This document shows, piece by piece, positions 30,395 to 50,092 of a stretch of 64,000 nt of DNA; position 1 is the first letter of the stretch; each line of letters starts with the position of its first letter. Position numbers and translations under genes: made by a program. A model generated the notes under the pieces. The model saw only the letters and a list, made by a program, of their open reading frames with translations. It did not search any database and was not told the origin of the DNA. This DNA comes from a bacterium (GTDB taxonomy: Bacteria > UBA10199 > 2-02-FULL-50-16 > JAJFLM01): positions 1,056,001 to 1,120,000 of the forward strand of contig CBDCFN010000016.1 of the NCBI GenBank assembly GCA_965216315.1, written 5' to 3'.

Positions 30395-33324
30395 GGTCGT
30401 CCCAGATTATACACAGGCATGAGTCCGATTTTGCCGATAGTGTCCCGGCGGTAGGGGCGTATCATTTCAGGGTTGCGTGGTTGAGTGTCGTAGGCGGCTC
30501 CAAAAGTCCAAATGAGTTGATCCTTTTCCTGGTCTGTTAATTGATCTAGATCCTTCATGAGTAATTGTTCGATCCGTTTTCTGAACAATCGAAACATGCG
30601 ATCCTGGTGATCCTTGGGAACTTGAAAGAAACGTTCAACATTGCCGACCATGTGATTGATACGGCGGATATCGTGCCCATTTTCATCAACGACGGAGTAG
30701 GGGGAACTGTCCAGCATAGGCTCGGATACAGGAACCGGCTCAGAAGCCTCGCCGATAATGGCGTGAGCCGCTTCACCATGGTCGGGATCTGCATTCCCCC
30801 AGCCCCATTTGCGCAGGTCGACTCCGCGGGTAGGGAGTTTTAATTGGTCAAGCGTGGGTAGGACAGCGCCCGGCATCTCTCGGGTCATAAACTCCAGAGC
30901 GGAGGTCACGTGGATATTGTAGATAGGCAGGTCCGGATCGGGAATCATTCCCACTCGATCGACAAAGCTTCCCCCATTCCTGGTTTCATCCCAGCGCCAC
31001 AGCGGTCCATTGGCATCGTAAGGGACATGGCGCAGCGCGGCTTCTATTCCATGGTTGTTGGCGTAATTGAGTAGGAATCGGTTCCAATCTCCATTCGTAA
31101 TCAGTGGGTGCAGCAAATAGTCTTCGGGTACATGTCGAACATCGTTGTCAGGTATTGCCGCTGAATAAGAACTCTGCCCTGTCCATACCGCTACGGAACC
31201 CGCGGGGATGAGCAGGCTTTTTTTACGTGCCCACTTGGGGATGGTTTTCATCGGATAGGCGGGAACGCGGAAAGTAAAACGACCCGGTCGCGCGGGAAGC
31301 GGCATGGAAACCGGCATATAATCATTGGCTATCAGGGTGAAACGATGGGCACCCCCCCGCTTGAATGAGTTATATCCCTTTGGAATTCCCGCAATGGCCT
31401 GAACCGGATAGTGGAAATTACTCAAATCCCCCCCGATATTTTCAGCATGCGCCAGTATTACCCTTGGCGATGAACTTTTGCTTAAGCGTCCGTCTAATTT
31501 AAATTGGACATCGATATTCTGGGCGACACGCTGATAACGCTCGTCGCTATTGTCTAATTCTCTCAATAGGACCCTGCTCGTCGCTTGGATGAGACGATCA
31601 ATTCCATTTCTGTCAGCATATTCCCAAAGGCGAAAATTGAGCTCGATGATTTTATCTCGGATGGGTGCGAGTTCGTAGCGCCGATAGGCTTCTTCATATT
31701 CACGTAAGGCAGTACTCATCATTTTTTCCCACTGATTTTCGATGCGACGTTGTTCTGCCAGCGCATGTCGACGAGATTCGCGGTAAGTCATAGGGACTTG
31801 ACTATGACGTTGTCGCCGTTTTCCCTGACTGGCGGTATGCTCCAATTCACGTGCCTTATGCGTGACAAAATCCGCTAGCATTTCGGCTGCATCTTGATGG
31901 CGGTCCTCCGGGTCGTGAGAGAGGGCACGCATGATTAATTGATCAAGCCAAACAGGGATCTTTGGATTGAGTTTGCGCGGTCTTTTCGGTGGATCTGTCT
32001 CCATGATGCGGTGGGAGATATAGGACAGGGGAGATTGTCCCGTCGTACGTGGATAGGGTAACTCTCCGGTCAAGAGTTCATAAAGCATGGCCCCGAGTGA
32101 ATAGACATCCTGACGTGGGTCGGGTTTGTAGCCATAGATGGCTTCGTAAGAGGCGTATTCAAGCGTACAGTTAAGGCGAATATCCTCTTTTTTCGGTTCG
32201 ACGTATTCTGAAAGTCGCAGTGCGATACCAAAATCAGCGAGTTTAATCGTTCCATCTTCAAGGACGAGATAATTATCCGGCTTAATGTCGCGATGAACGA
32301 TACCACGGGCATGGCAGGAGGTTGCCACTCTATGAATAAGATCACGCAGGATATTGATCGCTGCTTCCATGCTATGAGCCTTATTGAAAAAATATTGGGT
32401 GAGGGTGCCTTCTTCCGCATATTCCATGGCGAGAAAGGGGGCCCCCGTAGAGGTGTGCCCGGCGCCGTAAATCTGAATGGCACCGGGAGGGTTGTCTTTG
32501 AGCAATCTGACCTCATTCTCAAATCGCGTCATGGCGGCTTGCTGCCGAGAGGCTAAATGAATAATTTTAAGCACGGCGGTTCGTTCCACGTTCCCTATTA
32601 GATGCTGTGTCGCTAAATAGGCATGCCCCTCGCCACCGGATGCTAACCATTTGAGGGTGTGGAAATTAGAAGGGTGCTGTTCGCCTGAATGTTCAGCCAG
32701 GCGCAATAAATAGCCCTTCTCATCGGAGGTGATATCGGCCGAGAAAGGGCCCTCTTTTACTTCTTCAATTCCTTCAACTTCATCTTCACCGCGATCGACG
32801 ATGTAGGTGTCAATGGACTGCTGGATCGCTGCGGCGGGAGCTTCTATGGCCGCCGCCATACCTTGGATGGTTTTTAGGGTCATCTCACGGGTCTGGCGCG
32901 TGTCGATATCATCTTCAACGGCAGGAGTTTCATCAGATTCAATGTGAAATATTTCTCTCGCATGGCGATCAATTTCACTGATGTCATTAGATTTCGGCAG
33001 GGCCAGGGTCGTGATCAGGCTGTCGATGAGCAGCTGACTGCTGAAAAGCTCGCCGGTTTGTTTCATTGATGACTGCTCTAGACCCATAAGCGCTTCGTCT
33101 ATATTGAAAATAAGGAGACGGCGCGCTTCGCGCGGTATAACCTCGAAATTTCGGACCTTCATTCTGAATTCTGTCCCTGTTGCGACAATCTCGCCAAGAT
33201 GCATTTCGGGTTGTTGCTTGCATGTTGTATAGAGAGTCTGGACCATGCCGCGATATTGGGTGAGGGGACCACTGGCCGCGAGGAGCGCAGAGGTTTGAAA
33301 TAATTGGGCCGTATTCATCAACAT
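30391..33324 (-). CDS. Ser/Thr protein kinase with a C-terminal divergent FGE-sulfatase-like domain
   Basis: Kinase motifs HRDIKPDN, DFG and DVYSLG. C-terminus has LPTLDQLKLPTRGVDLRKWGWG, DSSPY and HMVGNV. Confidence 0.82.
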   Translation of the reverse strand: MLMNTAQLFQTSALLAASGPLTQYRGMVQTLYTTCKQQPEMHLGEIVATGTEFRMKVRNFEVIPREARRLLIFNIDEALMGLEQSSMKQTGELFSSQLLIDSLITTLALPKSNDISEIDRHAREIFHIESDETPAVEDDIDTRQTREMTLKTIQGMAAAIEAPAAAIQQSIDTYIVDRGEDEVEGIEEVKEGPFSADITSDEKGYLLRLAEHSGEQHPSNFHTLKWLASGGEGHAYLATQHLIGNVERTAVLKIIHLASRQQAAMTRFENEVRLLKDNPPGAIQIYGAGHTSTGAPFLAMEYAEEGTLTQYFFNKAHSMEAAINILRDLIHRVATSCHARGIVHRDIKPDNYLVLEDGTIKLADFGIALRLSEYVEPKKEDIRLNCTLEYASYEAIYGYKPDPRQDVYSLGAMLYELLTGELPYPRTTGQSPLSYISHRIMETDPPKRPRKLNPKIPVWLDQLIMRALSHDPEDRHQDAAEMLADFVTHKARELEHTASQGKRRQRHSQVPMTYRESRRHALAEQRRIENQWEKMMSTALREYEEAYRRYELAPIRDKIIELNFRLWEYADRNGIDRLIQATSRVLLRELDNSDERYQRVAQNIDVQFKLDGRLSKSSSPRVILAHAENIGGDLSNFHYPVQAIAGIPKGYNSFKRGGAHRFTLIANDYMPVSMPLPARPGRFTFRVPAYPMKTIPKWARKKSLLIPAGSVAVWTGQSSYSAAIPDNDVRHVPEDYLLHPLITNGDWNRFLLNYANNHGIEAALRHVPYDANGPLWRWDETRNGGSFVDRVGMIPDPDLPIYNIHVTSALEFMTREMPGAVLPTLDQLKLPTRGVDLRKWGWGNADPDHGEAAHAIIGEASEPVPVSEPMLDSSPYSVVDENGHDIRRINHMVGNVERFFQVPKDHQDRMFRLFRKRIEQLLMKDLDQLTDQEKDQLIWTFGAAYDTQPRNPEMIRPYRRDTIGKIGLMPVYNLGRP

Positions 33325-33328
33325 GAGC

Positions 33329-36292
33329 TTACCGAGTCAAGGTGGATACCATGGGTGTGGGGACGGCACCCTGTTCCGCGGTTCTTAATTTGATAACGGG
33401 GTTAAATCCTACCAAGGCTAAGGCTGAGGTGTCATGGACGGGGATGGGTTGAGCTATCTCCAAGTCTTTAGGCGTGAAACTATTGTAAGGAGCTCCTGCC
33501 GTAAAATACCAGTGATCAAATGGATTGTCTGTTTTGACGTACTCAAGCCCTGAATAATCGAGTAACATGTTAGCGGCAGAGCTGCCATCGACTCGCAATA
33601 GAGTCCTAACCCCGCTCACCATAAAGCGGACGGCTTGTTCCGGTCCCATTTCTCCCATGATTGAAAAGGGCGAAAAGTCGAGCATGGGATAGTTGTCAAA
33701 AAAACCGTCAAAATCGTTGGTCGGGATGCGCGCCGGAACCTTAAAGCCGGGAAATCGCCAGACGGCGATCCCTCTCCGTGTATCATCCCCCCAGGGATAA
33801 ATGCGGCGATCATTGCCGCGCATCGCGCGTTTCCATTCATTGAGGTCCGCCGGAAGGACGGTGTAGCCGTATTTTTTGATAAAATCACTGTAGGCATATC
33901 TTAAATAATGGACGGCATGCGCATAGCCGACGCCGGTTACGGCCGCATTTTCGATGAGTGGTCGATCATTCCTGTCTCTTAAAGTTAATGATTGATTAAA
34001 TTGGCCATTCAATAAGGCCATGTGAACATCTTCGTGCCAATGAGCGGGGATTGCATTGGCGAAGGCTGCCAGTGCTTGTTGCCGATTTTTTCGTTTACGC
34101 CGATTAATGAGGCGTCGTGTTGCAATCAAAAACTTTAGATAATCCTTGTTTGTTACCTTTGGCCCAAGCCAGTAATCGTAAGGAACGATTCGCAAATCTT
34201 TCTTGGGGATCTTTTCACTGAAACGACTCCTGAAATCACGGACGGCAACGGGACCAGCGGGAACGACAATGCCATCGAGTGGTAATGATTCACGATGATA
34301 ACGCGGTATTCGCAGAGTATGTGGTGATGAAGAAGGTCGTGCCGGTACGGGAACCCCAATTGGATGATAAAGCGGGTGATCAACCATGAGGTAATGGGAG
34401 TTGCCACGTGGAACTTTAATGATATTCTGAGGGATGCCGCGCGTTGTCTCCTGATAACCTTGCCACTTCAGTACGCCGTGAACATCCTGAGAGTGGCCGA
34501 TGGAAACTGTATAGTTGCTGTCATTGGGGTCCGCACCATCGAAGTCGAGTTGTATGCTGATGCGCCGGCTAAGCATGGGGAGCTGCATGCTCTTGGGTTC
34601 ATATCTCTCCCATTCCCTAATGAGACTCTGCCGTTCGCCTTCATTGCCGCGCATGTCGGCCCATTTAACCAGGTCGGAGATTCGATTGACGATCTCTTGT
34701 AAAATTGCGCCTTTAGGGTAGAGTTTGTAGGCATCCTTATATTCTTGCAGGGCCCTTTGTTGGTGATGTTTCCACTCCAGTTTGTGTTCAGCCGCAAGCT
34801 CCTTGTCAGGTTCTTTTCTTCGGAGGATCTTAAGGTATTCAGTCTCTGCTTGAGCGGCCGCTTGTTCATGGGCACGTGCTTTGTAGGTGCTCAAATCGAC
34901 GAGCAGGGCCTCAGCATTGGGGTAGCGTGCATCAATGTCTCGGGACATCGCCTTAAGCACAATGCGATCAAGTTCTGCCGGAATTTCTCGATCGGGAGAA
35001 ACTTGGCTGGGTCGAGGGGGGTCAATCTGTGACTTATCGAGATATTGACTGATATGATTCTTGCGGTGATCATAGGGGAGCTGGCCTGTGAGTAATTCAA
35101 AGAGTAGGACGCCGAGGGAATAGACGTCGCGCGTGTAATCATCTGGGTGCTGTTCGAGCCAGGCCTCCATGGGCATGTAGGGTGGTGTCCCTTGAACATT
35201 TTTTGTTTTCTGCTGTGATATCTGTTCAATGGTTTGGGCAATGCCGAAATCTCCAAATTTCAAAGAGCGCGCTTCTTTCGAGCGTACCATGAAGAAATTT
35301 TCCGGCTTAATGTCCTTATGGACAATGCCAATCGTGTGTGCTTCGTCAACGGCAGCGGTCGCTTGCAAGGCAAGTGTAATAATCGTTTCAAGGTCGAATT
35401 CAATTTGACCATCATTTATCTCTTCAATATGCTCCATGAGATTACCGTGCATGCGTTCCATGATGATGAACGGTTCGCCGGCTTCACTTTTTCCCGTGTC
35501 ATGGATAACAACGATGCGACGATTTTCATCTTCCATGCGTCCTTGAAGTCGGGCTTCGTTGCGAAAGTATTCCATATGCTCCGCGGCATTCTCTCCGGTC
35601 TTATTGATGACTTTGATCGCAACGAAACGGTCCATTTTGACGTCATATGCTTCATAGACGAGGCCTCCACCGCCTTCTCCAAGCACGTCGGTAAGCTGGT
35701 ATTGAATTTCATCGCGTCCACTGATGCGAAAGGGGATGGGATCCTCACGGGTTGGAATTTCTTGAGACGTGTCATCCGAGCTGATGACAACTTGCTCAGG
35801 TTCAGTGGCTTCAACTTCCGTACGAGTCTTGCCGAAACGAATTCCTTTGCGGGAGCGCAAATGGCCTATTCCGACTAAGGTACTGTGCCGAAGTTGCTGC
35901 CAGGGAGGGCTCCAGAGTTTTGTTTGGCGAAAGAGCCGGTCTAAGGCTTCCTCGGCGGGCTCATTTTGCCGCGGCAGGAGTTCGTACAGATAAAGATCGT
36001 TGAGGAAGGTGTTGAGCGCAATCTGTGTGGCCGGATTCGTGGTGTAGGCCAATAATAAATTGTCGCGTATCATTTCGGCGTTCTTGATCACGTCCTCAGG
36101 CATGTTCATTTCAATGAGACCATTGGTTAGCTGACTCATCGGGGGGACGAGTTGTTGAACGCCGATCGCGTCGTGTGCGGCGCCGAGCGCATGAACTTGC
36201 GTGACAGCTTCAATATAGAGCTGGCTAGCCGTTGTGCCGCTGGATGCCAAGAGAGATGAAGCACCCAAACTCGTGACCGGTGAGAAGAGCAT
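33329..36292 (-). CDS. Ser/Thr protein kinase with a C-terminal divergent FGE-sulfatase-like domain (paralogue)
   Basis: Kinase motifs LGEGGGG, VAIK, HKDIKPEN, DFG and GTPPYM. C-terminus has EWKRAMRGNDRRIYPWGD and DFSPF. Start at ATG 36292 (alternative 36313). Confidence 0.85.
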   Translation of the reverse strand: MLFSPVTSLGASSLLASSGTTASQLYIEAVTQVHALGAAHDAIGVQQLVPPMSQLTNGLIEMNMPEDVIKNAEMIRDNLLLAYTTNPATQIALNTFLNDLYLYELLPRQNEPAEEALDRLFRQTKLWSPPWQQLRHSTLVGIGHLRSRKGIRFGKTRTEVEATEPEQVVISSDDTSQEIPTREDPIPFRISGRDEIQYQLTDVLGEGGGGLVYEAYDVKMDRFVAIKVINKTGENAAEHMEYFRNEARLQGRMEDENRRIVVIHDTGKSEAGEPFIIMERMHGNLMEHIEEINDGQIEFDLETIITLALQATAAVDEAHTIGIVHKDIKPENFFMVRSKEARSLKFGDFGIAQTIEQISQQKTKNVQGTPPYMPMEAWLEQHPDDYTRDVYSLGVLLFELLTGQLPYDHRKNHISQYLDKSQIDPPRPSQVSPDREIPAELDRIVLKAMSRDIDARYPNAEALLVDLSTYKARAHEQAAAQAETEYLKILRRKEPDKELAAEHKLEWKHHQQRALQEYKDAYKLYPKGAILQEIVNRISDLVKWADMRGNEGERQSLIREWERYEPKSMQLPMLSRRISIQLDFDGADPNDSNYTVSIGHSQDVHGVLKWQGYQETTRGIPQNIIKVPRGNSHYLMVDHPLYHPIGVPVPARPSSSPHTLRIPRYHRESLPLDGIVVPAGPVAVRDFRSRFSEKIPKKDLRIVPYDYWLGPKVTNKDYLKFLIATRRLINRRKRKNRQQALAAFANAIPAHWHEDVHMALLNGQFNQSLTLRDRNDRPLIENAAVTGVGYAHAVHYLRYAYSDFIKKYGYTVLPADLNEWKRAMRGNDRRIYPWGDDTRRGIAVWRFPGFKVPARIPTNDFDGFFDNYPMLDFSPFSIMGEMGPEQAVRFMVSGVRTLLRVDGSSAANMLLDYSGLEYVKTDNPFDHWYFTAGAPYNSFTPKDLEIAQPIPVHDTSALALVGFNPVIKLRTAEQGAVPTPMVSTLTR

Positions 36293-36302
36293 CGCTCCTT
36301 TT

Positions 36303-36328
36303 TCGCCAATCATCTTCGATAGTTGTGT
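36303..36328 (-). promoter_or_regulatory. Alternative-sigma promoter-like motif ACACAAC-N15-GCGA
   Basis: Minus strand reads ACACAAC TATCGAAGATGATTG GCGA AAAAGGAGCG ATG. Confidence 0.55.
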
Positions 36329-36370: not shown

Positions 36371-36396
36371 ACGCAACAAATTGGCTCAAGAACCGA
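36371..36396 (+). promoter_or_regulatory. Alternative-sigma promoter-like motif ACGCAAC-N15-CCGA
   Basis: ACGCAAC AAATTGGCTCAAGAA CCGA, upstream of the GGAGG SD and GTG 36435. Confidence 0.62.
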
Positions 36397-36434
36397 AGGT
36401 TCAGCTGGGGCGTAGGCTTTGGAGGGAGATAGGA

Positions 36435-38273
36435 GTGAGCCTGGCAGTATCTCAGCTCGGTTTTTCGTCGAGTTTTGTCGGGATGGGTGCAATCTGCGCA
36501 TCTTTGCCGGCGCGCCCGATTAATCTCGGTCGAGTGCCAGCCCTCGATCACTTCATATCCCAGCCCCCCTCTAACGACCAAATTCGACCTAGTTGGAGCA
36601 GCCAACGTTCTACGGGTTCCCGGCATATTCTGGCCGCCGCACCGACGCGGGGTGGCGTGTCAACCGCGACAACCGTGGGTCCCGGCGGGCTCCGTGGCAG
36701 TGGCGGAGGTGGTCCCATTCAGCCAGGACACGTCTTTAAGCTGCCGAGAGGCGGCATGATTGTTTATACCTCTGCAGGGTGGCTTCAGATTGGTGTGCCC
36801 ATGTGGACCAACAAAGATGCGCGTTGGCTCTACGATCTAGCGGATGGCAGTCAGGCGAGTCCGGAGCAAATTCCTCACATCATGCCCACAATCTATATCT
36901 TTGATCTCGATTATGTGCCTGCAACGGACGGGCTTATTCCTGCTGATTTTCTGCAGTATATGAATTTTGTTACGCGAACCGCGCATAACCCGAAAGGAAT
37001 TACCTTTGAAATGATCGCGCCGGATAATGCGACGGCACGTCGGCTGGAAGACTATCTCAACTTAGTTTTCTTAGGCCCCGATGATCCTGATTTGTCCGAG
37101 CGCGTTCGCCAAGAGTATCCTCCGGGCGCGACCGGAGTGCCTGATTTGCTGGCTGAGATGCATCAGGGATTTCCGGCGGCAGCTCCTGACGTATTGCGCC
37201 GGATACACGCTATGGACGCAAACAATGGTTTCGCCACCGGTCAGGTGACTGTGCGCAAGATTGGTTCTCAACTCTATGAGGTGCAGGATGGGACTGATAT
37301 CACTCAGGTGGATCTGGCGCAGGCTCCGATCCGCGGAGTGAACTTAGCTCAAAGCCTTCCCTCATGGGAATCGCCCGCCCATGAAGATGTCTGGAATGGC
37401 GTGGTGAAACAACAGCGTCCAGGCATTTGGCCGATAGGGACGGGCCATGGGTTTACTGCGGATAAAGAAACCAGCGGATTTATTATTTTTAATGGGGGCC
37501 GTGCCTTATTGGTGGATCCACCCTCAAATACAGATGAATTTCTGGTGACCAACCAAATCCCGCTGGCCATGGTGCATGGTGCACTGCTGACGCACGGTCA
37601 TACGGACCATTATGGCAATGCGATTCCCAAGCTGATTTCAATGTTGCCGAGTCTTAAGCTCTACACGACGCCGACTATCTATGACATGTTGCAGGAGCAG
37701 TATGCGTTATCATTAGGCGCCAACTTTTCAGGCGGGCTGGGTCGCTGGACATTCGATCCGATAGCGCCGCAGGAGTTTAAACAGATTATTGGCATGCATT
37801 TTCGGCCCGAGTATACTTTTCATAGCATTCCGACTTTAGGTTTCGATATTTATCGTCGCCCCGTGCAGGATCGCGGTGAGCGTATCGTCATGTTTACAGG
37901 CGATACAAACGCCGATCATGAGCGCATTTTCGATCACACGCAGACGGCTAAGGATGGAACGCCCCCCCTGATGAGCTATGAGCGCGCTCAAAATATTATC
38001 CGCCACGTCGATGGAGTGCTAATGCCCCCCCGGGGTGCACGACCGCCTGTTGTCCTGATCGATAACGGGATTGAGCCCTTACACACGCCCCCGGCGGCGA
38101 CGCAAAAGCTTCTTGTCGAGGCGATTCAGCGTGGTATCGATGTCTCCCGGATACGGGTCTATCATATTGACAGTAAGGAGGCCCGTCGTCATGGCTTGCC
38201 GGAATGGCTGGAAGGGTGGCGCGGCTTTATCGACCTTTCTCAGTATTTTCAGAGGTTTAGAAGCAGCCCCTGA
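36435..38273 (+). CDS. MBL-fold metallohydrolase, putative cyclic-nucleotide phosphodiesterase
   Basis: THGHTDH (HxHxDH), HSIPT and FTGDT. LPRGG..LQIGVP and GHGF..TSGFIIFNGG..VDPP are motifs I recall from PdeD-like MBL phosphodiesterases. Gly/Ser/Pro-rich N-terminal extension. Confidence 0.75.
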   Translation: MSLAVSQLGFSSSFVGMGAICASLPARPINLGRVPALDHFISQPPSNDQIRPSWSSQRSTGSRHILAAAPTRGGVSTATTVGPGGLRGSGGGGPIQPGHVFKLPRGGMIVYTSAGWLQIGVPMWTNKDARWLYDLADGSQASPEQIPHIMPTIYIFDLDYVPATDGLIPADFLQYMNFVTRTAHNPKGITFEMIAPDNATARRLEDYLNLVFLGPDDPDLSERVRQEYPPGATGVPDLLAEMHQGFPAAAPDVLRRIHAMDANNGFATGQVTVRKIGSQLYEVQDGTDITQVDLAQAPIRGVNLAQSLPSWESPAHEDVWNGVVKQQRPGIWPIGTGHGFTADKETSGFIIFNGGRALLVDPPSNTDEFLVTNQIPLAMVHGALLTHGHTDHYGNAIPKLISMLPSLKLYTTPTIYDMLQEQYALSLGANFSGGLGRWTFDPIAPQEFKQIIGMHFRPEYTFHSIPTLGFDIYRRPVQDRGERIVMFTGDTNADHERIFDHTQTAKDGTPPLMSYERAQNIIRHVDGVLMPPRGARPPVVLIDNGIEPLHTPPAATQKLLVEAIQRGIDVSRIRVYHIDSKEARRHGLPEWLEGWRGFIDLSQYFQRFRSSP

Positions 38274-38290: not shown

Positions 38291-38316
38291 AAACAACAAT
38301 TTTGCCCCCCGGCCGA
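38291..38316 (+). promoter_or_regulatory. Alternative-sigma promoter-like motif AAACAAC-N15-CCGA
   Basis: AAACAAC AATTTTGCCCCCCGG CCGA AGAAG, 18 nt before ATG 38335. Confidence 0.6.
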
Positions 38317-38334
38317 AGAAGCGGGGAAGCTGTG

Positions 38335-41300
38335 ATGTTAGGACTCAACGCACAATATAGCCTCACCCAGGCGGGTGTGATGGCCGCTGTTTCTACGGCG
38401 GGTCTACGCCATATCTATGGGATAGCCGGGACGCTTGAGAATAACCTGCGCCTTAATATCCCGATGGAGAGTATTGCCGAAACGTTGGCCCCGCAAGTGG
38501 CTCAGCTTGAATGGGATCAGAAGGGTAAACAGCCGCAGCTCATACACCAAAATCGCATGCTCGAGCGTATTGTCGCCGGCACAGTCTATCCCGATGCCGA
38601 CGGTAGAAAAACCGACGCGCATGTCGTTTTGGGATCCATTTACCATGCGATTGAGCGGATCAATCCGCAGCTCTATCAGGAACTGTCCGGTTTTGCGGGC
38701 AAACTCACTTTGCCGCCGCCATCGATGTCATCTCGACGGAGGACGACAGGACATTATTCAAGCGCCGCGCCACCGGCTGCGACTGTCGTGCCGAAACATC
38801 GTGAAGGCCAAATTGAATGCCTGCATTGTCAGAGTTGGAATCCCGTTAGTAAGAGTTTCTGCGGTGACTGCGGAGAAGACATTTCGGATGATTCTCAATA
38901 TGTGCCGCGGGCGCAAAACATGCGCGGAACAATCTTGTTTACAGACTTTCAAGGATTTACCGATATGAGTCAGTCAATGCCGGCAGAAGTATTGTTCGGG
39001 TGGCTCAATAGACAGTTCAATCTATTGGGAGCCGAGATCATGCGGCAAGGGGGATGGTTCGTTAAAAACATCGGCGATGCGATCATGGTGGTCTTTAATC
39101 AACACGAAGATCATGCCCGGCGTGGAGTCAGTACAGCGGTTCGCATGTTGCAGATTCTTGAGCAGGTCAACCCGCAGCTCAAGGGCATGGGCCTTCCGGC
39201 CTTGCAAATGAGGATTGGCGTGCACACAGGGAATATTGCAGTTGGCTATCTCGGTGGGCCTGGTTCAAAACGAGCGGATGCGATAGGCCGTGCCGTTAAT
39301 TTGGCTTCACGGCTGGAGAGTTTCAAATTGGAAAAGGGAGCTCGAACCATAAATGTTCCTGACGGAAACCGCGTCCTTGTCTCCGGTGCGACCCTGTCAG
39401 AACTAGCCGGAGGCTTTGAACATAGCTTCATTGATAAAGTAGCTTTCAAGGGAGTTGAGCAGCCGGTTGAAGTTTATCACATTCAAGGTGAGTTGCCGGG
39501 GGCCAGTGTCGCCGACCGCTATGCAGGTTCCCAAAGCCAGTTTCGGGGGCGTCGGCGAGAAATGGATCAATTGCAAGCGACCTTTGTTCAAGCGATGCAG
39601 GGACAGCCTCAGTTGGCACTTATCTCCGGCGAGGCGGGCCAGGGAAAGAGTCGACTCGCGCTTGAATTCTTGAATTCAATGAAGGGGCCGCGGGAACGTC
39701 ATATCAAAGTCATAGCCGCACGTGGGGTTGATAGGGATTATCATCCTCCCTATGCCTTGATGAGCGATGCCCTGACGCACTTGGCCGGTATCGAAGCCGA
39801 TGATGAGTTGGAAGAGATTGAGGTCAAAATTCGGAGTCTGGTTTGGTTGTCAAAAGGTCTTGGAGCTGAAGAGCAAGAACAGATGGCGCAGTTGCTGGGA
39901 CGCTTGATGGGGATTCCCTTTCGAACGGAGTTTTCCCCGCAGGAACGGCTGAAGCGCGAGACGATAGAAATGCGCCAAAGAGTCTTCGATAATATTGAAT
40001 CAATGGCTTCAGACCAAAATGTCTTGCGTATGGCAATTCATCGCGCTGTCATTCAATTCTTTCAAGAACATTCCCGCTATTTTTCCCTAATACTTTCTCT
40101 GGAAGATGTGCATTGGTCCGACCAGGAATCATTGGAGCTGTTGCACGAAGTATTCGCATCGCTTGAAGACCGACCGGTAATGGTTGTGGGGACCATGAGG
40201 CCCGAATTTGATACGGGACCCGGTTTTCAGCTCGAAGATATTTTTGCAGGGGATTATAAGGCCGAGCCGATACAGCTCCGTGAGTTATCGATGACGGACA
40301 TGCGCTCCATTGTACAAGACATACTTGGTGAAAGCTCTCAAACGGATCCGGAAGTGGTTAATTACGTCATCTGGCAAGCGGCCGGTAATGTTTTTTTACT
40401 GCATGAAATGGCCCAGGCGGTTAAGGATGGTTGGTTGCAACGCGGAGAGACACCTGAAGAGTGGCGTTTGGTGGGTGCGCATGATGAGCGTCGCACCGTC
40501 GGTGCCGATAATTTTTTACAGACGCGCCTCGAACGATTATCTCCGGCCGAACGCAGTGTCGTTGACTATGCGGCGGTAATTTCCGATGCCTTTGATTTAC
40601 AGTTAATACAAGAATTGGGGATCCCCAATGCGGGCGTTCATTTAGGGCAACTGGTTCAAAAACAGATCCTTCATCAAGACCGACAAGGTAAGTACCGCTT
40701 TCGCCATGATATGATGCGTGCAAAGGCCTATGCGATGATGAGTCATGAAACGCGCCGTGACCTGCATCGCGACATGGCGGAGTTGCTGGTTGAGCATGAA
40801 GTAGAGGACAAAGCTCTTATAGCGTATCATTTGGATAAGGGAGAACAGACGGTAGCGGCGGCCCGCTATTATTTGGATGGCGCCGAACAAGCGCAAGAAC
40901 GCGCACTCTACCGGCAGGCGCTTAGATATTACGATCGTGTCTTTGCCTTGGGTCGCGAAGAAGATAATCAATTGGCTTTGCGGGGTTTGTTGGGGGGGAA
41001 TGAAGTCGCTCTGGATATGCGCGATACCGAATCGGCCTATGCGCGTATCGAATTGGCAGCAGATCTCTTGCAGTCAGGTATTGAACGTGAAGTCAGATCT
41101 CAGTATTTTTATCGCCTCGCCCATACGTTGCAAGTTGACCGTAATGATGAAATCAAAGCGAATTTGTTCGCTGCTGAGCAGGCCGTAAAAAACGCACTAA
41201 AGCGATACGATGACGTCGAAGTATCACCTATGAAAGCGCAATTGTTGGCGACGTTGGGACGGATTTACGCGGAACGCAGGGACTTTCAGGTGGGGCAAAC

Positions 41301-42804
41301 CTATATTCGTCAGGCGATTGTTACGGCCAAAGCGGCTCATGATGATGATGTGGTTGCGGAAACCTATCTCCACCAGATGTATATGGACCTGCAGTATGGA
41401 GACTATGGGTCGGTTATCAAGTTAGGCAATGATGTCGATGCCTTGCTCAAATCCCCTAAGTTTGCCAAGCGCCGGATTGCCCGAAACGTGAATGTAGGAG
41501 GCGCGCACATCAATCTGGGTAATTACGAGGAGGCGCTGCGCATTTATCAAGTGACGGAGACGCTGTCGCGTGAAAAATTTGCAGGGACCTACCTTCCCAA
41601 TATCGTTCCTAACGTCGGGACCTGTTTGCGTCTCCTGGGTCGATCGGAATTGGCGCTCCAACATCTCGATCGTGCGATTGAACTCTTTAGCCACCAACCC
41701 AACGCCTTTATGGCGGGGGTGACGCAACTCTATCGTGCGCTGACTCTCCTCGACCTTAAGCGCTATGACGAGGCCGACGAGGCGGCGACCCGAGTCTATG
41801 CCGTTTCACAGGCGGGGAATGAGCCCGATCCAAAATTAGAGGCGATGGCGCACATGGCTCATGCCCAGATCCAATTAGCTCAAGATCAACTGCAAGCGGC
41901 CGAACAAAGTAGCGCTGAAGCCTATCGATTGTTGTTGGCATCTGAGTGGCATATTGAGGAGTTTGATTTAGAGATTGCGCTGACACATGCGCGCATCCTG
42001 TGGAAGCAGGGTAAGAGCGAGGAGGCGTGGCAGGTCCTTCATGGAACCGAGCAGGTCAAGGGGGCCAGGCAGGAGCTTGTGCTACGGGCAGAGAAACTCG
42101 ACTTGGCGTTGCAGGCGAATTTCTATCATCGGAATCGGGTCAATGCGGCGATCGTTCAGATGTGGGAAGCTATTCAGTTAGAGAGGTTGCGAAGTAATAG
42201 TAACGCTAGCCTGGGGGCTATCGTGCAGGAAGCGCTTACGCGAGTTCAGCCGGGCATGTTGACGCCTGATATTGAGGCTTATGCGCAGCAGGAGCCAGGG
42301 AAGCTGTCGGCGCTGAGAGAAGTCGGTAATCATCAGCTGGTTGGGGTTCTACTTAACTCACCATATATAGTCACGCTGGGAACAGTACTATCAAGGAAAT
42401 TAGAAGAGATGGGGGCTGCAGAAACGATGGAAGCCGGACTTTCATTGACCCGTGCCGTGTGGCGCCCTTCGTTTAATGAAGATGGCAGGCCCATTGTTTA
42501 TTGGGATTTTGATCTTGATTCCGACAATGTGCAGATCTTAAGTGCTTTAAACACCATTGGAAATGTTAGGCGTCACATTCATGCGACGTATGAAGGAGAT
42601 GTGAGCTACAGTGATGGAGTCATTAAAGTTACCTTCAACTTAACGCAAGAAACGGAGACCTTCACGACGGACCAATTTGGAGCTATCGAGTTACTCATTG
42701 GCGCGACCACCGATGGGCGCTCCGTTTTGGCGCTGCGCGCTGAAAAGGGTGCCTTTACAGCGCGACCGGATATCTTACTCCAGGACTTAGCCGAAGGTCT
42801 CTAA
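38335..42804 (+). CDS. Zn-ribbon / class III adenylate cyclase / P-loop NTPase / TPR protein
   Basis: Zn ribbon CLHC..FCGDCG. Cyclase motifs FTDFQGFT, KNIGDA, RIGVHTG and DAIGRAVNLASRLE. Walker A GEAGQGKS and Walker B LEDVHW. TPR region. Start set to ATG 38335. Confidence 0.9.
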   Translation: MLGLNAQYSLTQAGVMAAVSTAGLRHIYGIAGTLENNLRLNIPMESIAETLAPQVAQLEWDQKGKQPQLIHQNRMLERIVAGTVYPDADGRKTDAHVVLGSIYHAIERINPQLYQELSGFAGKLTLPPPSMSSRRRTTGHYSSAAPPAATVVPKHREGQIECLHCQSWNPVSKSFCGDCGEDISDDSQYVPRAQNMRGTILFTDFQGFTDMSQSMPAEVLFGWLNRQFNLLGAEIMRQGGWFVKNIGDAIMVVFNQHEDHARRGVSTAVRMLQILEQVNPQLKGMGLPALQMRIGVHTGNIAVGYLGGPGSKRADAIGRAVNLASRLESFKLEKGARTINVPDGNRVLVSGATLSELAGGFEHSFIDKVAFKGVEQPVEVYHIQGELPGASVADRYAGSQSQFRGRRREMDQLQATFVQAMQGQPQLALISGEAGQGKSRLALEFLNSMKGPRERHIKVIAARGVDRDYHPPYALMSDALTHLAGIEADDELEEIEVKIRSLVWLSKGLGAEEQEQMAQLLGRLMGIPFRTEFSPQERLKRETIEMRQRVFDNIESMASDQNVLRMAIHRAVIQFFQEHSRYFSLILSLEDVHWSDQESLELLHEVFASLEDRPVMVVGTMRPEFDTGPGFQLEDIFAGDYKAEPIQLRELSMTDMRSIVQDILGESSQTDPEVVNYVIWQAAGNVFLLHEMAQAVKDGWLQRGETPEEWRLVGAHDERRTVGADNFLQTRLERLSPAERSVVDYAAVISDAFDLQLIQELGIPNAGVHLGQLVQKQILHQDRQGKYRFRHDMMRAKAYAMMSHETRRDLHRDMAELLVEHEVEDKALIAYHLDKGEQTVAAARYYLDGAEQAQERALYRQALRYYDRVFALGREEDNQLALRGLLGGNEVALDMRDTESAYARIELAADLLQSGIEREVRSQYFYRLAHTLQVDRNDEIKANLFAAEQAVKNALKRYDDVEVSPMKAQLLATLGRIYAERRDFQVGQTYIRQAIVTAKAAHDDDVVAETYLHQMYMDLQYGDYGSVIKLGNDVDALLKSPKFAKRRIARNVNVGGAHINLGNYEEALRIYQVTETLSREKFAGTYLPNIVPNVGTCLRLLGRSELALQHLDRAIELFSHQPNAFMAGVTQLYRALTLLDLKRYDEADEAATRVYAVSQAGNEPDPKLEAMAHMAHAQIQLAQDQLQAAEQSSAEAYRLLLASEWHIEEFDLEIALTHARILWKQGKSEEAWQVLHGTEQVKGARQELVLRAEKLDLALQANFYHRNRVNAAIVQMWEAIQLERLRSNSNASLGAIVQEALTRVQPGMLTPDIEAYAQQEPGKLSALREVGNHQLVGVLLNSPYIVTLGTVLSRKLEEMGAAETMEAGLSLTRAVWRPSFNEDGRPIVYWDFDLDSDNVQILSALNTIGNVRRHIHATYEGDVSYSDGVIKVTFNLTQETETFTTDQFGAIELLIGATTDGRSVLALRAEKGAFTARPDILLQDLAEGL

Positions 42805-44730: not shown

Positions 44731-44745
44731 GCGTGCTTTATGCGA

Positions 44746-44775: not shown

Positions 44776-44799
44776 TACGTTCCTGTTGGGAGGACTGAG

Positions 44800-45261: not shown

Positions 45262-45272
45262 GAGAGGATTTA

Positions 45273-46232
45273 ATGATGATCTTAAATATCATGCTCATTG
45301 GGCTGGTCATATTTGCCTTAGTCACTTTTTATAAAACGATCCGGGTGGTTCCGCAGAAAACCGCATTCATTATCGAGCGGTTGGGAAAGTACAGTAATAC
45401 ACTGACGGCAGGGCTTCATATACTGGTCCCTTTTATTGATAAGGTATCCTATAAGCATACGCTAAAAGAGCAGGCCCTCGATGTGCCCTCACAGATTTGT
45501 ATCACTAGGGATAATATTGCCGTAGAGGTCGATGGAATTATTTATCTGCAGGTTATTGATGCGGCAAAAGCATCTTATGGAATAACGAATTACCAGTTTG
45601 CTTCAACTCAGCTCGCGCAAACAACGATGCGTAGTATTATTGGTAAGCTAGACCTCGATAAAACCTTTGAAGAACGCGAAACGATTAACGGAGCTATTGT
45701 TGAGGCAGTCGATAAGGCGTCTGAGCCTTGGGGTGTCAAGGTCACTCGTTATGAGGTTAAAAATATTATTCCTCCGCAGAGCATCAAAGATGCAATGGAA
45801 AAACAGATGCGTGCTGAGCGTGAGAAGCGGGCCGTCATCGCCGAATCAGAAGGTGATAAGCAGGCCAAGATCAATCGGGCCCAAGGTGAAAAACAGGAGA
45901 CGATCTCTGTTTCCGAAGGTGAGATGCAGCGCCGCATCAATGAAGCGGAAGGGCGTGCCCAGGAGATTGAGCGCGTGGCGAATGCGACCGCCAAGGGAAT
46001 TAGAGAAGTTGCTCTGGCCATCAATGATGAGGGTGGGCTTGATGCCGTTAATATGCGGATCGCGGAGCAATATCTCGATGAATTCGGGAACTTGGCGCGC
46101 ACGAATAATACGCTCATTATTCCTTCCAATGTTTCTGATATTGCCGGAATGGTCGCTTCGGCGATGACGGTGATCAAGGGCGAGAGTAATGGGAAGGGTA
46201 AGGTCCGCGGCAAGGTGAAAGTCGCTGAGTAA
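45273..46232 (+). CDS. SPFH/stomatin-like (QmcA/paraslipin) protein
   Basis: IIERLGKY, ITRDN, AQTTMRS and QMRAEREKRA motifs. Confidence 0.93.
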   Translation: MMILNIMLIGLVIFALVTFYKTIRVVPQKTAFIIERLGKYSNTLTAGLHILVPFIDKVSYKHTLKEQALDVPSQICITRDNIAVEVDGIIYLQVIDAAKASYGITNYQFASTQLAQTTMRSIIGKLDLDKTFEERETINGAIVEAVDKASEPWGVKVTRYEVKNIIPPQSIKDAMEKQMRAEREKRAVIAESEGDKQAKINRAQGEKQETISVSEGEMQRRINEAEGRAQEIERVANATAKGIREVALAINDEGGLDAVNMRIAEQYLDEFGNLARTNNTLIIPSNVSDIAGMVASAMTVIKGESNGKGKVRGKVKVAE

Positions 46233-46233
46233 A

Positions 46234-46758
46234 ATGAAAACGACCATCTTTACAGTATTGTTATTAGTTCTATCATCGGGGGCGCAGGCCCGGACGGTTT
46301 CGCCGGAGAAAAGTCCGTCAAAAAAGCCGCCTTTGGAGGTGTTTATTCCATCCGGTTGGCAGATGGAGGCGCCGTGGTCAATAGAGTATTCCTATTCCGC
46401 GAAAGCAGCCCTGCTGGCCCCCGGGGCGGATCCGAATGTCCAGTGTCGCGTCAAGTTCCGGGAGGAAACGACTCCGGAATTTCGGCAAAGTAACTACCAA
46501 GCAAGGATTCTGAACGAAGTGCGAACTTCTCGTAGTAACTTCAATGTCTTAAATCAGTCAGCGTTTCCCATTGAAGGTCGCGAAGCAACGCGCGTGACAG
46601 CATCCTGGAATGAGGGTGGCCGACTTGTAAAAGGGGTTTTTTATTTCCTCTCCAAGGCGCAACGCAAAGTTGTCATGGAATGTGTCGGTCCCTCTAAGGA
46701 TCATGAGCGGCTCGTATCCGGTTTCGATCAAATCGCGCAACGGCTCAAAATTCATTAG
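46234..46758 (+). CDS. Secreted hypothetical protein (PsbP/DcrB-like)
   Basis: Signal peptide AQA|R; IPSGW, IEGREA and FDQIAQRLKI pattern. Confidence 0.55.
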   Translation: MKTTIFTVLLLVLSSGAQARTVSPEKSPSKKPPLEVFIPSGWQMEAPWSIEYSYSAKAALLAPGADPNVQCRVKFREETTPEFRQSNYQARILNEVRTSRSNFNVLNQSAFPIEGREATRVTASWNEGGRLVKGVFYFLSKAQRKVVMECVGPSKDHERLVSGFDQIAQRLKIH

Positions 46759-46792
46759 CCAAAAGTCACCACGACATTATAAAGAGTCCTTA

Positions 46793-47125
46793 ATGGACAA
46801 GACGCAGGCTCCTAAAAACATCGCTGTCGCCAAGGGCCCGCCGGGACTCATGATTGAATGGGAAGATGGATTGAAAAGGAAGATTCCTTTTATCACGCTT
46901 CGCAAAGAGTGTCCCTGCGCCGAATGTCGGGGGGAAAGAACGCCATTGGATCTGGCTCCGGATGAGTTGCCGACGGCACGACCCCTGAGCGATAAAGCGG
47001 CAATTTGCCAGAATATGTATAAAATCGGGGGATATGCTGTCGGTTTTGTCTGGGGGGACGGTCATGACAGCGGCATCTACAGCTGGGAGTATTTAAGAGC
47101 GCTTGCGGAGGGTATTGATGACTGA
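46793..47125 (+). CDS. DUF971 / gamma-butyrobetaine hydroxylase-like N-terminal domain protein
   Basis: LRKECPCAEC, IGGYA and WGDGHDSGIYSWEYL motifs. Confidence 0.88.
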   Translation: MDKTQAPKNIAVAKGPPGLMIEWEDGLKRKIPFITLRKECPCAECRGERTPLDLAPDELPTARPLSDKAAICQNMYKIGGYAVGFVWGDGHDSGIYSWEYLRALAEGIDD

Positions 47126-47561
47126 GCAGCCCGCCCGCGGCACTGTCCAGACCGTTTGTGAAGTTCGCTTCTCTGATACGGATGCCATGGGGCACGTCAA
47201 TAATGCCCGGTTTTTTAGCTACATGGAGCAGGCGCGGGTGGCCTATATCGCCCGCCTCATGCTGGATGTAGATTATAAAGAGGGTGTTCGCTCTTTCCCT
47301 TTTATTCTAGCCGATATCCAGTGTGCCTTTAAATCTCCTTTGTATGTAGGTGAAGTTGTGACGGTTTTTATTTCCGTTGCCTCAATTGGGACCAAGAGCT
47401 TTGTCTTCGAGTATTCCCTGATGGAGCAGGGATCCGGTCGGTTGGTAGCGACGGGTCGGAGTGTCCAGGTTCTCTATGATTACAAGCAGGAAGCGAGTTA
47501 CCCCATGCCGGACGAGATGAGGCGCAGTATTGAGGCCTTGGAGGGGCGCTCCTTCGCGTAA
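47118..47561 (+). CDS. Acyl-CoA thioesterase (4HBT/YbgC family)
   Basis: VRFSDTDAMGHVNNARF; GGAGG SD before ATG 47118. Confidence 0.9.
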   Translation: MTEQPARGTVQTVCEVRFSDTDAMGHVNNARFFSYMEQARVAYIARLMLDVDYKEGVRSFPFILADIQCAFKSPLYVGEVVTVFISVASIGTKSFVFEYSLMEQGSGRLVATGRSVQVLYDYKQEASYPMPDEMRRSIEALEGRSFA

Positions 47562-47565
47562 TTCT

Positions 47566-47591
47566 ACGCAACTTCTATTATGAGGGCCCGA
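47566..47591 (+). promoter_or_regulatory. Alternative-sigma promoter-like motif ACGCAAC-N15-CCGA
   Basis: ACGCAAC TTCTATTATGAGGGC CCGA TGAGCGTAT ATG, with no SD. Confidence 0.65.
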
Positions 47592-47600
47592 TGAGCGTAT

Positions 47601-49229
47601 ATGGGGTTCGGGTTTGCACTTACATCGACGCATACTCCGACGGCGGCACTAGCTGCCGCGGGTGTAACTTTCAACCGAGCGACTTTCTTTGATGATGTGC
47701 TCCAAACTCAAGGGCTACGCCAAGTCTACCCCATTCGCGACCCTGCAGTTATTACGGAAGCCTTTGCTGCCTATCAAGGGAGTGACGCAGATCTCTTCAG
47801 TTTAGCGGGGACCGAACAAAGTCTCGATGTTGACAGCGGCACTGTTCCACTAACCTATTTGGATAGCACGGCTTCGACCAAGATGATTCCCCACGTGGAG
47901 GCGGCCGAAGCCAATGCCAATCGACATTACGCCAACAGCCATTCGGTTGCTCACAATCCTGCCATGATCTCTACTATCGATTTTAAGAATGCTCATCGCC
48001 GCGCACTTGATTTTGTGGGGGCTAATCCAACCACGCATGTTGCAGTTTTTGATGGCTCTGGTGCAACAGGTCCACTCAATCGAGTGGCAAGAAACCTTTT
48101 TGTCCATGGACGTGATGAAAAAAGGAACACAGTTCTCTTTACGGGCAAAGAGCATCATGCCAACCAGTTACCTTGGCAACGTTATGCCGGTAAGCTGCAT
48201 TGTCATGGTATTCCCGTAGATGGCGTTACAGGTTGTGTTGATATACCTGCCTATCGTCAGTTGCTTCAAGATCATAGTGAACGACTTCGTTTGGTCGCGG
48301 TCAATGGAGTGTCTAATGTGACCGGTGTGGTAGAGCCGGAATTGGAGCTGATGGCTCATTTGGCCCATGAGGTGGGTGCTCTGTTGTTGGTAGATTATGC
48401 TCAGGGCTTGGCTCATAGGGCGATCAGTATGCAAGAGCTGGGTATCGATTTTCTGGTTGCCTCAGGACATAAGACCTATGCACCCGGATCACCCGGCCTT
48501 CTAGTAATGCCACGAGACAGCACACCTCAGTATCCCGACAACGTGGGCGGTGGCATTGTTGAGTCCGTCGATATTGATGATTTTCAACTAAGCAGTAAAT
48601 TGCCCGATCGGGAAGAAGCAGGAACGCCAGATATTATCGGTGGAATTAAGTTTGCGGCGGCATTGGAGGCGCTAGCTTGGGTCGGTATGGATCGAGTTTG
48701 GCAGCACGAGTTGGAATTGACAGAGCAATTGGTGTCAGGATTGATGGCAATATCAGGCGTTGAGGTTTATGGTGATACAGATTTGGCCAGAACACCGCGT
48801 GCCGGTGTAGTAACATTCAATATTGATGGTCTCCATCATGCGATTCTGAGTCAGGCCTTATCGGATTATTTTAATATTGCAACCCGGAATGAGTGCTTTT
48901 GTGCTCAGCCGTATGTGAAATCGCTCTTTCATATGACGCCGGATCAATTGCGACGATTTAAGCACCAGCTTGCAGAGGGTGATCGGAGTAAGGCTCCCGG
49001 GATGGTAAGAGCCAGCTTGGGTATTTACAATACAACCAATGACATCCATCGATTGTTGGTAGCCGTGGCATGGATTAGCGCGAATAAGGATCGTTTGGTT
49101 CAGGAATACTATGTCGATACTAATGGCAATGCCTATCGTCATGACAAATGGCGGGTTGATGCCAATAGGTACAGTTCATTACCCTCTAGCAATGGTGACT
49201 CCCTTTATTTCCCATCGGTCGACAGCTGA
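47601..49229 (+). CDS. Cysteine desulfurase-like class V PLP enzyme (SufS-type) with an N-terminal extension
   Basis: YLDSTAST, EHHAN, SNVTG, VDYAQ, ASGHK (PLP lysine), EAGTP and RNECFCAQP motifs. Confidence 0.88.
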   Translation: MGFGFALTSTHTPTAALAAAGVTFNRATFFDDVLQTQGLRQVYPIRDPAVITEAFAAYQGSDADLFSLAGTEQSLDVDSGTVPLTYLDSTASTKMIPHVEAAEANANRHYANSHSVAHNPAMISTIDFKNAHRRALDFVGANPTTHVAVFDGSGATGPLNRVARNLFVHGRDEKRNTVLFTGKEHHANQLPWQRYAGKLHCHGIPVDGVTGCVDIPAYRQLLQDHSERLRLVAVNGVSNVTGVVEPELELMAHLAHEVGALLLVDYAQGLAHRAISMQELGIDFLVASGHKTYAPGSPGLLVMPRDSTPQYPDNVGGGIVESVDIDDFQLSSKLPDREEAGTPDIIGGIKFAAALEALAWVGMDRVWQHELELTEQLVSGLMAISGVEVYGDTDLARTPRAGVVTFNIDGLHHAILSQALSDYFNIATRNECFCAQPYVKSLFHMTPDQLRRFKHQLAEGDRSKAPGMVRASLGIYNTTNDIHRLLVAVAWISANKDRLVQEYYVDTNGNAYRHDKWRVDANRYSSLPSSNGDSLYFPSVDS

Positions 49230-49246
49230 ATCTGCATAGACCCCAG

Positions 49247-49272
49247 ACGCAACTTTTAGACCTAGCGGCCGA
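49247..49272 (+). promoter_or_regulatory. Alternative-sigma promoter-like motif ACGCAAC-N15-CCGA
   Basis: ACGCAAC TTTTAGACCTAGCGG CCGA AAAG, 13 nt before ATG 49286. Confidence 0.65.
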
Positions 49273-49285
49273 AAAGGGCCTTCTC

Positions 49286-50092
49286 ATGTTGGCCCTATCC
49301 ACTAACGTACTTGCACTGGCTCCAGCGCTTCTCGCCACTACCAATAGTAATGTGCCTCATATCGTCCGTCCTTCGCGCGCTGTCGGCGTCTCGATGTATC
49401 GGAGTCTTGAACGCTTTGCCAATCGACATGAGGGGACGGTCAGAGGGCAGGACGTGTTGAGGCAACTACGTCGTCTACCGAGTCGCTCTGAGTTGGGACT
49501 CGATCATGTGCGACAGTTGCAGGACTTACTCGACTTTCCGTGGTTCTTTGACGCGATTTTACCTAATCCGCTGCTTCTTGATGGCCTGATGCGGGCACTG
49601 GGGCTTAAGGATGATCGTTTTGAGCCGATGGCTGAATTGCTGCTTGCCGGCGGGATCAGGTCCCTGGCGAATCGTGTGAGGGCGCGCAATTTTCGGATAA
49701 AAGACGTTCCTCCCAGTTTTGTGACCTTTCATCCACGGACGGCGGCTCGTAACTGGTTGTGGTGGCAGCCTGAATATGACGTGCTTCTGCTCTGTCATCG
49801 ACCGGGAAGTGTTCAACCGATTCATACTCACGGCGGGGCGGTCGGGGTCGATTACGTGCTTTCGGGGACCATGAGGGAAGAACGCTTCTTGCCTTATCAA
49901 GAAGATACACTTCTGTTTGTGGGATCTCGGATCTACCAGCAGGGCGAGGCATTGGTCGTCAATGATGAAGGCATTCATCGTATCTCCAATGCGTCGGACA
50001 CGGAGAGTCTTTTGACGCTACATTTCTATACGCCGCCGATTCCTGTTTCCAAGGTGGAGACCTGGTATGAAAGTGATGTGGTCAATGCTTGA
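49286..50092 (+). CDS. Cysteine dioxygenase-like cupin with an N-terminal extension
   Basis: PIHTHGG, GIHRISN and TLHFYTPP give the 3-His CDO pattern. Confidence 0.8.
   Translation: MLALSTNVLALAPALLATTNSNVPHIVRPSRAVGVSMYRSLERFANRHEGTVRGQDVLRQLRRLPSRSELGLDHVRQLQDLLDFPWFFDAILPNPLLLDGLMRALGLKDDRFEPMAELLLAGGIRSLANRVRARNFRIKDVPPSFVTFHPRTAARNWLWWQPEYDVLLLCHRPGSVQPIHTHGGAVGVDYVLSGTMREERFLPYQEDTLLFVGSRIYQQGEALVVNDEGIHRISNASDTESLLTLHFYTPPIPVSKVETWYESDVVNA

Follow-up and report, generated by a model that had tools for sequence, protein, structure and literature searches.

An uncharged N-terminal tag, a sigma-28-type promoter and a non-flagellar type III secretion locus in a bacterium of the UBA10199 lineage

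Why should protein kinases, a nucleotide cyclase, an MBL-fold hydrolase, an aminotransferase and a cupin all begin with the same kind of uncharged N-terminus? The question is raised by a window of 64,000 nucleotides (positions 1,056,001 to 1,120,000 of contig CBDCFN010000016.1, assembly GCA_965216315.1) from an uncultured bacterium of the UBA10199 lineage. An initial annotation of this window described a common leader on six unrelated proteins and proposed that it is a lineage-specific export or targeting signal. Here we follow the leader, called the tag below, through the source genome and its relatives. It recurs on dozens of further proteins, many of its genes stand behind a sigma-28-type promoter, and it may be a type III export signal.

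All six N-termini are present where the initial annotation had placed them, and no Lys, Arg, Asp or Glu (KRDE) is found over 24–27 residues from the start codon. On the minus strand, a Ser/Thr kinase of 977 aa (30391..33324) begins with 24 uncharged residues (leader 33253-33324, core ALLAASG), and a second Ser/Thr kinase of 987 aa (33329..36292, counted from ATG 36292) begins with 27 (leader 36212-36292, core SLLASSG). On the plus strand are found an MBL-fold hydrolase of 612 aa with a GTG start (36435..38273; leader 36435-36512, 26 residues), an adenylate/guanylate cyclase of 1,489 aa with AAA_16 and TPR domains (38335..42804; leader 38335-38406, 24 residues), a class-V, cysteine-desulfurase-like aminotransferase of 542 aa, which is an extra SufS paralog (47601..49229; leader 47601-47675, 25 residues, core ALAAAG), and a cysteine-dioxygenase-type cupin of 268 aa (49286..50092; leader 49286-49366, 27 residues, core ALLATT). 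All six proteins are assigned by Pfam. An AlphaFold2 prediction of the cupin without alignment is uninformative (mean predicted local distance difference test score 39.3). The six proteins are not all unrelated, because the two kinases are paralogs with 28% identity across 786 aa; five independent families are represented. The kinase gene at 30391..33324 begins 4 nt past that of its upstream paralog, and the two are probably transcribed together. Other proteins of the same window and genome have classical signal peptides and lipoboxes.

The four clustered tagged genes between 30391 and 42804 (two kinases, a cyclase-STAND protein and the MBL hydrolase) resemble a cyclic-nucleotide/phosphorylation toolkit, and their arrangement is syntenic in contig C472 of G001, a genome of the same family (f1). 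Homologs of the MBL hydrolase are mostly about 900 aa long and fused to domains that bind cyclic nucleotide monophosphates (PF00027); one such homolog is named phosphodiesterase by one source.

Is the tag a peculiarity of the window? The source genome (G000; 2.96 Mb, 98% complete) was divided into 2,488 non-overlapping open reading frames (ORFs) by crude gene calls of our own. As a null model, every candidate start near the 5′ end of an ORF (11,411 peptides) was set against start-like codons deep within ORFs (28,298 peptides). A 20-position hidden Markov model (HMM) built from the six window leaders matches 41 of the N-terminal versus 5 of the internal peptides at 8 bits or more, and 24 versus 1 at 10 bits or more; 12 of the top matches are the six training proteins at alternative starts. 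A rule derived from the same six leaders (a KRDE-free run of at least 18 residues, low hydrophobicity and a core [LIVMFC][LIVMFCA]A[ASGT][STAGHN]) is satisfied by 153 N-terminal peptides, belonging to 88 ORFs, versus 26 internal ones. Ten of the 88 were removed by judgement, five with starts inside a Pfam domain and five atypical by eye, among which at least C15:54941 later looked genuine. The tag is thus present at about 78–88 of the 2,488 ORFs, at 14–20 times the internal control rate. The initial annotation had proposed to search the proteome with a profile of the leaders and to give up the idea if nothing further came up; further proteins are retrieved well above the internal controls.

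The form of the tag can be described from the 78 remaining leaders. Met is followed by about 14 residues rich in Ser, Thr, Ala, Leu and Gly, then by a core h-L-A-[AS]-[SGA](G) such as LLAAS(G), and then by an uncharged linker. The core starts at a median of residue 16 (interquartile range 14–18), and charged residues begin at a median position of 29. The leaders consist of 18.6% S, 18.3% A, 17.9% L, 10.9% T and 7.4% G, and Ser and Thr together make up 29.5% of them compared with 11.5% of the proteome. As in Sec signals cut by signal peptidase I, the position is N-terminal and small residues lie near a possible cut site; A-[AS]-[SGA] in the core is compatible, as far as sequence goes, with the small residues at –3/–1 of a signal-peptidase site. 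The charged n-region and the h-region of such signals are, however, missing. Lys and Arg are absent from at least the first 18 residues (a consequence of how the set was chosen; 24–27 in the six window leaders). The longest hydrophobic run (LAVIFMWC) is 4 residues long at the median and 7 at most, with 3–4 in 58 of the 78 leaders, and no Sec-type h-region of about 7–15 residues is found, in a set that was pre-filtered for low hydrophobicity. The twin-Arg motif and the lipobox Cys are missing as well: the leaders contain no Arg, and Cys is confined to the second position of the core, where 9 of the 78 have it, never after small residues. In this respect the tag is, as originally described, unlike Sec, Tat and lipoprotein signals.

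At the core columns, Leu is encoded by all six of its codons, Ala by all four and Ser by both codon families, in about genome-wide proportions; thus the tag is selected as protein, not as DNA. The reading frame is open from the ATG into the catalytic domains of all carriers.

Within family f1, the tag is also found on orthologs in G001, G002, one further metagenome-assembled genome (MAG) and P0012. The peptide motif is preserved in orthologs whose DNA differs, and the adjacent linker is not conserved. Tagged orthologs are observed for phosphofructokinase (PFK; G001 and G002), for the aminotransferase (G001, G002 and one further MAG) and for the MBL hydrolase (P0012), and G001 has tagged orthologs of three kinases and two cyclases. 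Orthologs from another family (G031), with 31–40% identity, have charged residues at the start and no tag, and about 20 longer MBL homologs likewise begin with charged residues. The sister family represented by G003 is without the kinase and cyclase genes, and no cupin ortholog was found in G001, G002, G003, G031 or G006. That the signal is lineage-specific, as first proposed, is borne out by these comparisons; the export part of the proposal is weighed below. Within the source genome, a profile of 76 leaders (A1) gave 29 matches at E ≤ 10 and 15 at E ≤ 2, while G001 yielded 2 and G002 none; the profile is too insensitive to map the tag, and its matches in other genomes fell in open frames of 17–59 aa.

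What do the genes have in common besides the tag? The word GCAACTT is present upstream of 24 of the 78 leader genes versus 67 of 2,207 others (p 1.7e-16). A two-block element, CAAC[TA]-N15-CGA(W)(A)(A), is found upstream of 44 of the 78 at exactly this spacing and upstream of 0–1 at other spacings; genome-wide, 529 sites are present at N15 versus 180–326 at neighbouring spacings. We take its –10 block to resemble the canonical –10 of sigma-28 promoters. With a position weight matrix (PWM) at a score of at least 14, 195 sites are detected, of which 172 lie ahead of an ORF of at least 80 aa. Of these promoter-linked ORFs, 80 begin 30–38 nt after the –35 core, i.e. 6–11 nt past the –10 element. 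As this leaves no room for a ribosome-binding site, the mRNAs of these 80 genes are predicted to be leaderless or near-leaderless. Uncharged N-termini of at least 15 residues are observed in 52 of the 80 close-spaced ORFs and in 87 of the 172 overall, while 28 of the 80 have ordinary charged N-termini. Genes with 5′ regions of 40–110 nt carry the tag as well.

Of the six tagged genes of the window, all but one have a site of their own; the exception (30391..33324) is the kinase gene that directly follows its paralog. For this paralog, the site at 36300..36325 (minus strand, PWM 24.7) is 33 nt before ATG 36292. It overlaps the upstream ATG 36313, which is thereby ruled out as the start, and this implies a leaderless mRNA; the start at 36292, chosen in the initial annotation, is supported. 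The remaining sites are on the plus strand. The site of the MBL gene (36374..36399, PWM 15.8) is 61 nt before the GTG and is followed by a ribosome-binding site, GGAGGGAG. That of the cyclase gene (38294..38319, PWM 25.5) is 41 nt before ATG 38335, that of the aminotransferase gene (47569..47594, PWM 20.2) is 32 nt before ATG 47601, again with a presumably leaderless mRNA, and that of the cupin gene (49250..49275), 36 nt before ATG 49286, is the top-scoring site of the genome (PWM 30.2).

The promoter is conserved upstream of orthologs. It is also found outside the family: G023, which belongs to another family and has 59% GC, contains 31 matches to the promoter matrix in 400 kb (G023:C3:1-400000), compared with about 38 per 400 kb in G000, and the consensus is nearly the same letter for letter. 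The enrichment of uncharged N-termini is weak in this region (1.28% versus 0.79% of internal peptides; 3.55% versus 1.07% in G000). Five or six ORFs behind promoter matches of G023 have uncharged Ser/Thr/Ala-rich N-termini, all without the LLAAS core. Since G023 keeps the promoter but not the core, the regulon looks class-wide and the stereotyped core looks like a family innovation.

Three observations on promoter sites are added here. The sites of G023 precede lipoproteins, unknown proteins and a few proteins with uncharged N-termini. In G000:C16:2164000-2206000, a group of genes with the same promoter has an N-terminus of the type Met-Gly-Cys-(Asp/Glu)-Leu-Tyr-Gly-Ala-Ser, which is distinct from the tag. 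Seven near-identical matrix matches (all 14.1) at G000:C16:684566-689912 lie inside a repetitive gene with a 2,376-aa frame of Asp/Gly-rich repeats; most likely they are chance matches carried by the repeat unit.

Which machine could read the tag? The single FHIPEP gene of the genome is located in a non-flagellar type III secretion system (T3SS) locus, G000:C16:339083-371707, outside the window. The locus encodes, in this order, an FHA/YscD-type protein (SctD), a small LcrH/SycD-like TPR protein, SctJ, a sigma factor, SctL, SctN, a YscO-like protein, a FliK-like protein, FliM/FliN-like proteins (SctQ), FliO, SctR, SctS and SctT. SctV is also encoded in the locus; the genes of SctU and of a 989-aa secretin lie at other places. 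The locus retains parts of flagellar type, namely FliO, the FliM/FliN-like and FliK-like proteins and the FliA-type sigma factor. Searches for flagellin and for rod/hook proteins came up empty in the source genome, with positive controls detected. With positive controls likewise detected, TssC, VirB4, the bacterial microcompartment (BMC) shell protein (PF00936) and encapsulin (PF04454) were not found in the 98%-complete genome; family-2 encapsulins were not searched separately.

The sigma factor of the locus has TIGR02479 FliA_WhiG as its best family (E 1.3e-38, 133 bits, below the NCBIfam cut-off of 189.6), and no paralog of it is found in the genome by blastp. Its orthologs, with 52–81% identity, are present in 41 of 41 class genomes, commonly 10–18 kb from SctV, and FHIPEP is likewise present in all 41. 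Flagellated relatives have a separate second FliA beside the flagellar FlhA, and flagellin genes there carry a related promoter. In the source genome, the two genes right after sctT (717 and 491 aa, of no known family) have both the promoter and uncharged N-termini. The sole homolog found for the 717-aa protein (P0031) begins with M-S-I-LLASG.

What is tagged besides the window proteins? No Pfam family is found in 59 of the 84 carriers scanned. The others include PFK, malic enzyme, a PALP enzyme and glutamate dehydrogenase (GDH). Two carriers are giants: a single-chain acetyl-CoA carboxylase (ACC) of 2,588 aa with an ACC_central domain, fused to a biotin-protein ligase (L034, G000:C16:1632124-1639887), and a protein of 3,854 aa with acyltransferase, MaoC dehydratase and short-chain-dehydrogenase domains, which resembles type I fatty acid synthase (FAS; L012:1-11562, G000:C15:370007-381568). 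Further carriers are a PlsC-type acyltransferase, a GT28 glycosyltransferase, a diacylglycerol (DAG) kinase, a second cyclase, a helicase, a hybrid histidine kinase and a kinase of 2,444 aa, and the tag is also found on FGE-sulfatase, pentapeptide, HEAT and Laminin_G_3 proteins. Since untagged AccC, BirA, malic enzyme, SufS, GDH and PFK are encoded in the genome too, the tagged enzymes form a second set. At least three tandem LamG paralogs (G000:C16:444000-456200) begin with the uncharged tag, two of them with the sigma-28-type promoter, and no lipoprotein signal is present at these starts.

We see about an even chance that the tag is a lineage-specific, unusually stereotyped type III export signal. 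This reading is favoured by the form of the tag, by the absence of the other machines tested, by the logic of the regulon and by the tagged genes in the secretion locus. The link to the T3SS itself is circumstantial: it consists of the shared sigma-28-type regulon and of the two promoter-bearing genes with uncharged N-termini in the locus. According to the proposed mechanism, the tag would mark about 80 proteins as late substrates of the sole non-flagellar T3SS, which would read it. The FliA (sigma-28) paralog of the locus would read the promoter and drive the tagged genes, many of them as leaderless mRNAs, so that the production of substrates would wait for an active sigma factor; in analogy to the flagellum, it would become active once the machine is complete. 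The cargo, signalling enzymes and the second metabolic set, would then act outside the cell, in a host, a prey or a shared compartment.

Several points weigh against a type III export signal. We know of no described T3SS signal with a sequence consensus, such as this tag shows. Both the T3SS and its sigma factor occur throughout the class, but the stereotyped tag is found only in family f1. The same promoter also stands ahead of ordinary signal-peptide proteins and lipoproteins, so that the regulon is wider than the tag. The FliK-like protein, an expected early substrate, and other small proteins of the T3SS locus do not have the tag. Cargo of 2,588 and 3,854 aa would need to be unfolded and refolded. 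The survey of other secretion machines was limited to TssC and VirB4. Needle, translocon and CesT-type chaperone were not recognised, in searches that had no positive control and carry no weight; the same is true of the ADP/ATP translocase (TLC), which was not found by Pfam, and no host is known.

A bolder version, which we regard as doubtful, is that a flagellum-derived injection machine ships a whole auxiliary metabolism into another cell by means of a sequence-defined, portable N-terminal tag. The cargo would then be PFK, malic enzyme, GDH, a self-biotinylating ACC, a type-I-like FAS, acyltransferases, kinases and cAMP enzymes, and the cytoplasm of the host or prey would in effect become a lipid factory of the bacterium. 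The tag would in this case be the first type III signal legible directly from sequence.

How does the proposed type III signal compare with known systems? Neither such a tag, nor a FliA-driven regulon of a non-flagellar T3SS, nor a T3SS in the candidate group of the source organism turned up in the literature searched. The N-termini of T3SS effectors are, for example, Ser-rich and acid-poor, as described for plant-pathogen effectors. The tag resembles them in that it occupies the first 20–30 residues, is rich in Ser and Thr, has no acidic residues, is too weakly hydrophobic for Sec and is present on unrelated cargo in an organism with a T3SS. It differs from them in that its core, h-L-A-[AS]-[SGA], follows Met1 at a roughly constant distance, in the exclusion of Lys and Arg and in its restriction to one family. 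In the flagellar class-3 regulon, FliA (sigma-28) drives the late export substrates after completion of the export machine. In both, the gene of a FliA-like sigma factor lies among those of the export apparatus, the promoter consists of two blocks at fixed spacing with a CGA-containing –10, and the late substrates, putative in our case, have uncharged N-termini. Here, however, flagellin, rod and hook were not found, the regulon comprises about 170 members, enzymes among them, the sigma factor scores under the FliA cut-off, and no FlgM-like anti-sigma factor was identified. Chloroplast transit peptides are also N-terminal, hydroxyl-rich, uncharged and poorly hydrophobic; a plastid-type import machinery is not expected in a bacterium.

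Two further precedents come from published work. Xanthomonas effectors have a translocation motif (TrM) that is read via the general chaperone HpaB, is proline/arginine-rich and binds cardiolipin through its arginines (PMC6638074). As in our case, a conserved short motif in the N-terminal region is present on many unrelated proteins, and it sets the export handling of T3SS effectors there; our tag differs in being strictly uncharged, and no HpaB-like partner was identified. Chlamydia trachomatis is reported to secrete glycogen-metabolism enzymes and the phosphoglucomutase CT295 by its T3SS (PMC4829429, PMC9251005), so that ordinary metabolic enzymes with N-terminal type III signals work outside the bacterium. 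In Chlamydia this is known for only a handful of enzymes, which are not known to have a common motif, whereas here dozens, including giant lipid-synthesis enzymes, carry one stereotyped tag.

Could the cargo stay inside the cell? The tag would then be an intracellular address or a stage-specific handle, by which enzymes are gathered at a membrane patch, a pole or a condensate, or are degraded in a timed manner when the sigma-28-type programme ends. We consider this unlikely, and yet the cargo speaks for it, being a coherent cytoplasmic-type set that needs ATP, NAD(P)H, CoA or biotin (PFK, malic enzyme, GDH, ACC with its biotin ligase, the FAS-like protein, the PlsC-type acyltransferase, DAG kinase and GT28) and consisting of extra paralogs under one promoter type. 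The short, conserved linear core would also suit a dedicated binding partner. Against such an address stand the Laminin_G_3 and other extracellular-type domains of some carriers and the two tagged genes in the T3SS locus. In addition, no BMC shell or family-1 encapsulin was found, with positive controls detected, and no candidate receptor or protease was identified.

Export by another route appears quite unlikely. The tag could be a weak Sec-type signal that has no charged n-region and is cut after its small-residue core, or it could belong to an undescribed exporter or to one such as a type I or type II secretion system, both outside our survey. Small residues at –3/–1 are the rule for signal-peptidase sites, and the core resembles them; the extracellular-type domains of some carriers would fit as well. 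However, the longest hydrophobic run is 3–4 residues in most leaders and at most 7, less than a Sec h-region needs, signal peptides and lipoboxes of the classical kind occur alongside the tag in this genome and window, and much of the cargo consists of large ATP- or cofactor-dependent enzymes of cytoplasmic type.

A nucleotide-level constraint at leaderless 5′ ends, or an untranslated 5′ region with the true start downstream, is highly improbable and largely refuted already: although the close spacing at 80 of the 172 promoter-linked ORFs leaves no room for a ribosome-binding site and the avoidance of K, R, D and E also avoids purine-rich codons, the core codons follow genome-wide usage, the tag is found behind longer 5′ regions too, 28 of the 80 leaderless-type genes have charged N-termini, the frame is open from the ATG into the catalytic domain, and orthologs keep the peptide when their DNA differs.

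One neighbour of the tagged genes is mentioned for completeness. At 26897-30394 the window encodes a protein of 1,165 aa with two similar halves, the second of which begins after an internal hydrophobic segment. Because of weak matches to the Chlamydia PMP repeat and to pectinesterase-like proteins, it is probably a beta-helix surface protein.

What would a type III export signal of this kind mean? It is difficult to spot type III secretion signals in a sequence, and effector lists are mostly based on weak statistical predictors. If the proposed reading is true, a complete substrate list of about 80–90 proteins, together with a minimal, testable recognition motif, could be read directly from the genome. 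Metabolic enzymes, one of them fused to its own biotin ligase, would be exported on a scale that is undescribed in the literature searched. Should the tag instead serve as an address within the cell or as a degron, a new sorting code of bacteria would have come to light. The regulatory part holds whatever the tag does: a dedicated FliA paralog is present in a non-flagellar T3SS locus in 41 of 41 class genomes, with a conserved promoter and many presumably leaderless mRNAs, and flagellar-style late-gene logic would thus be retained in an injectisome-like system.

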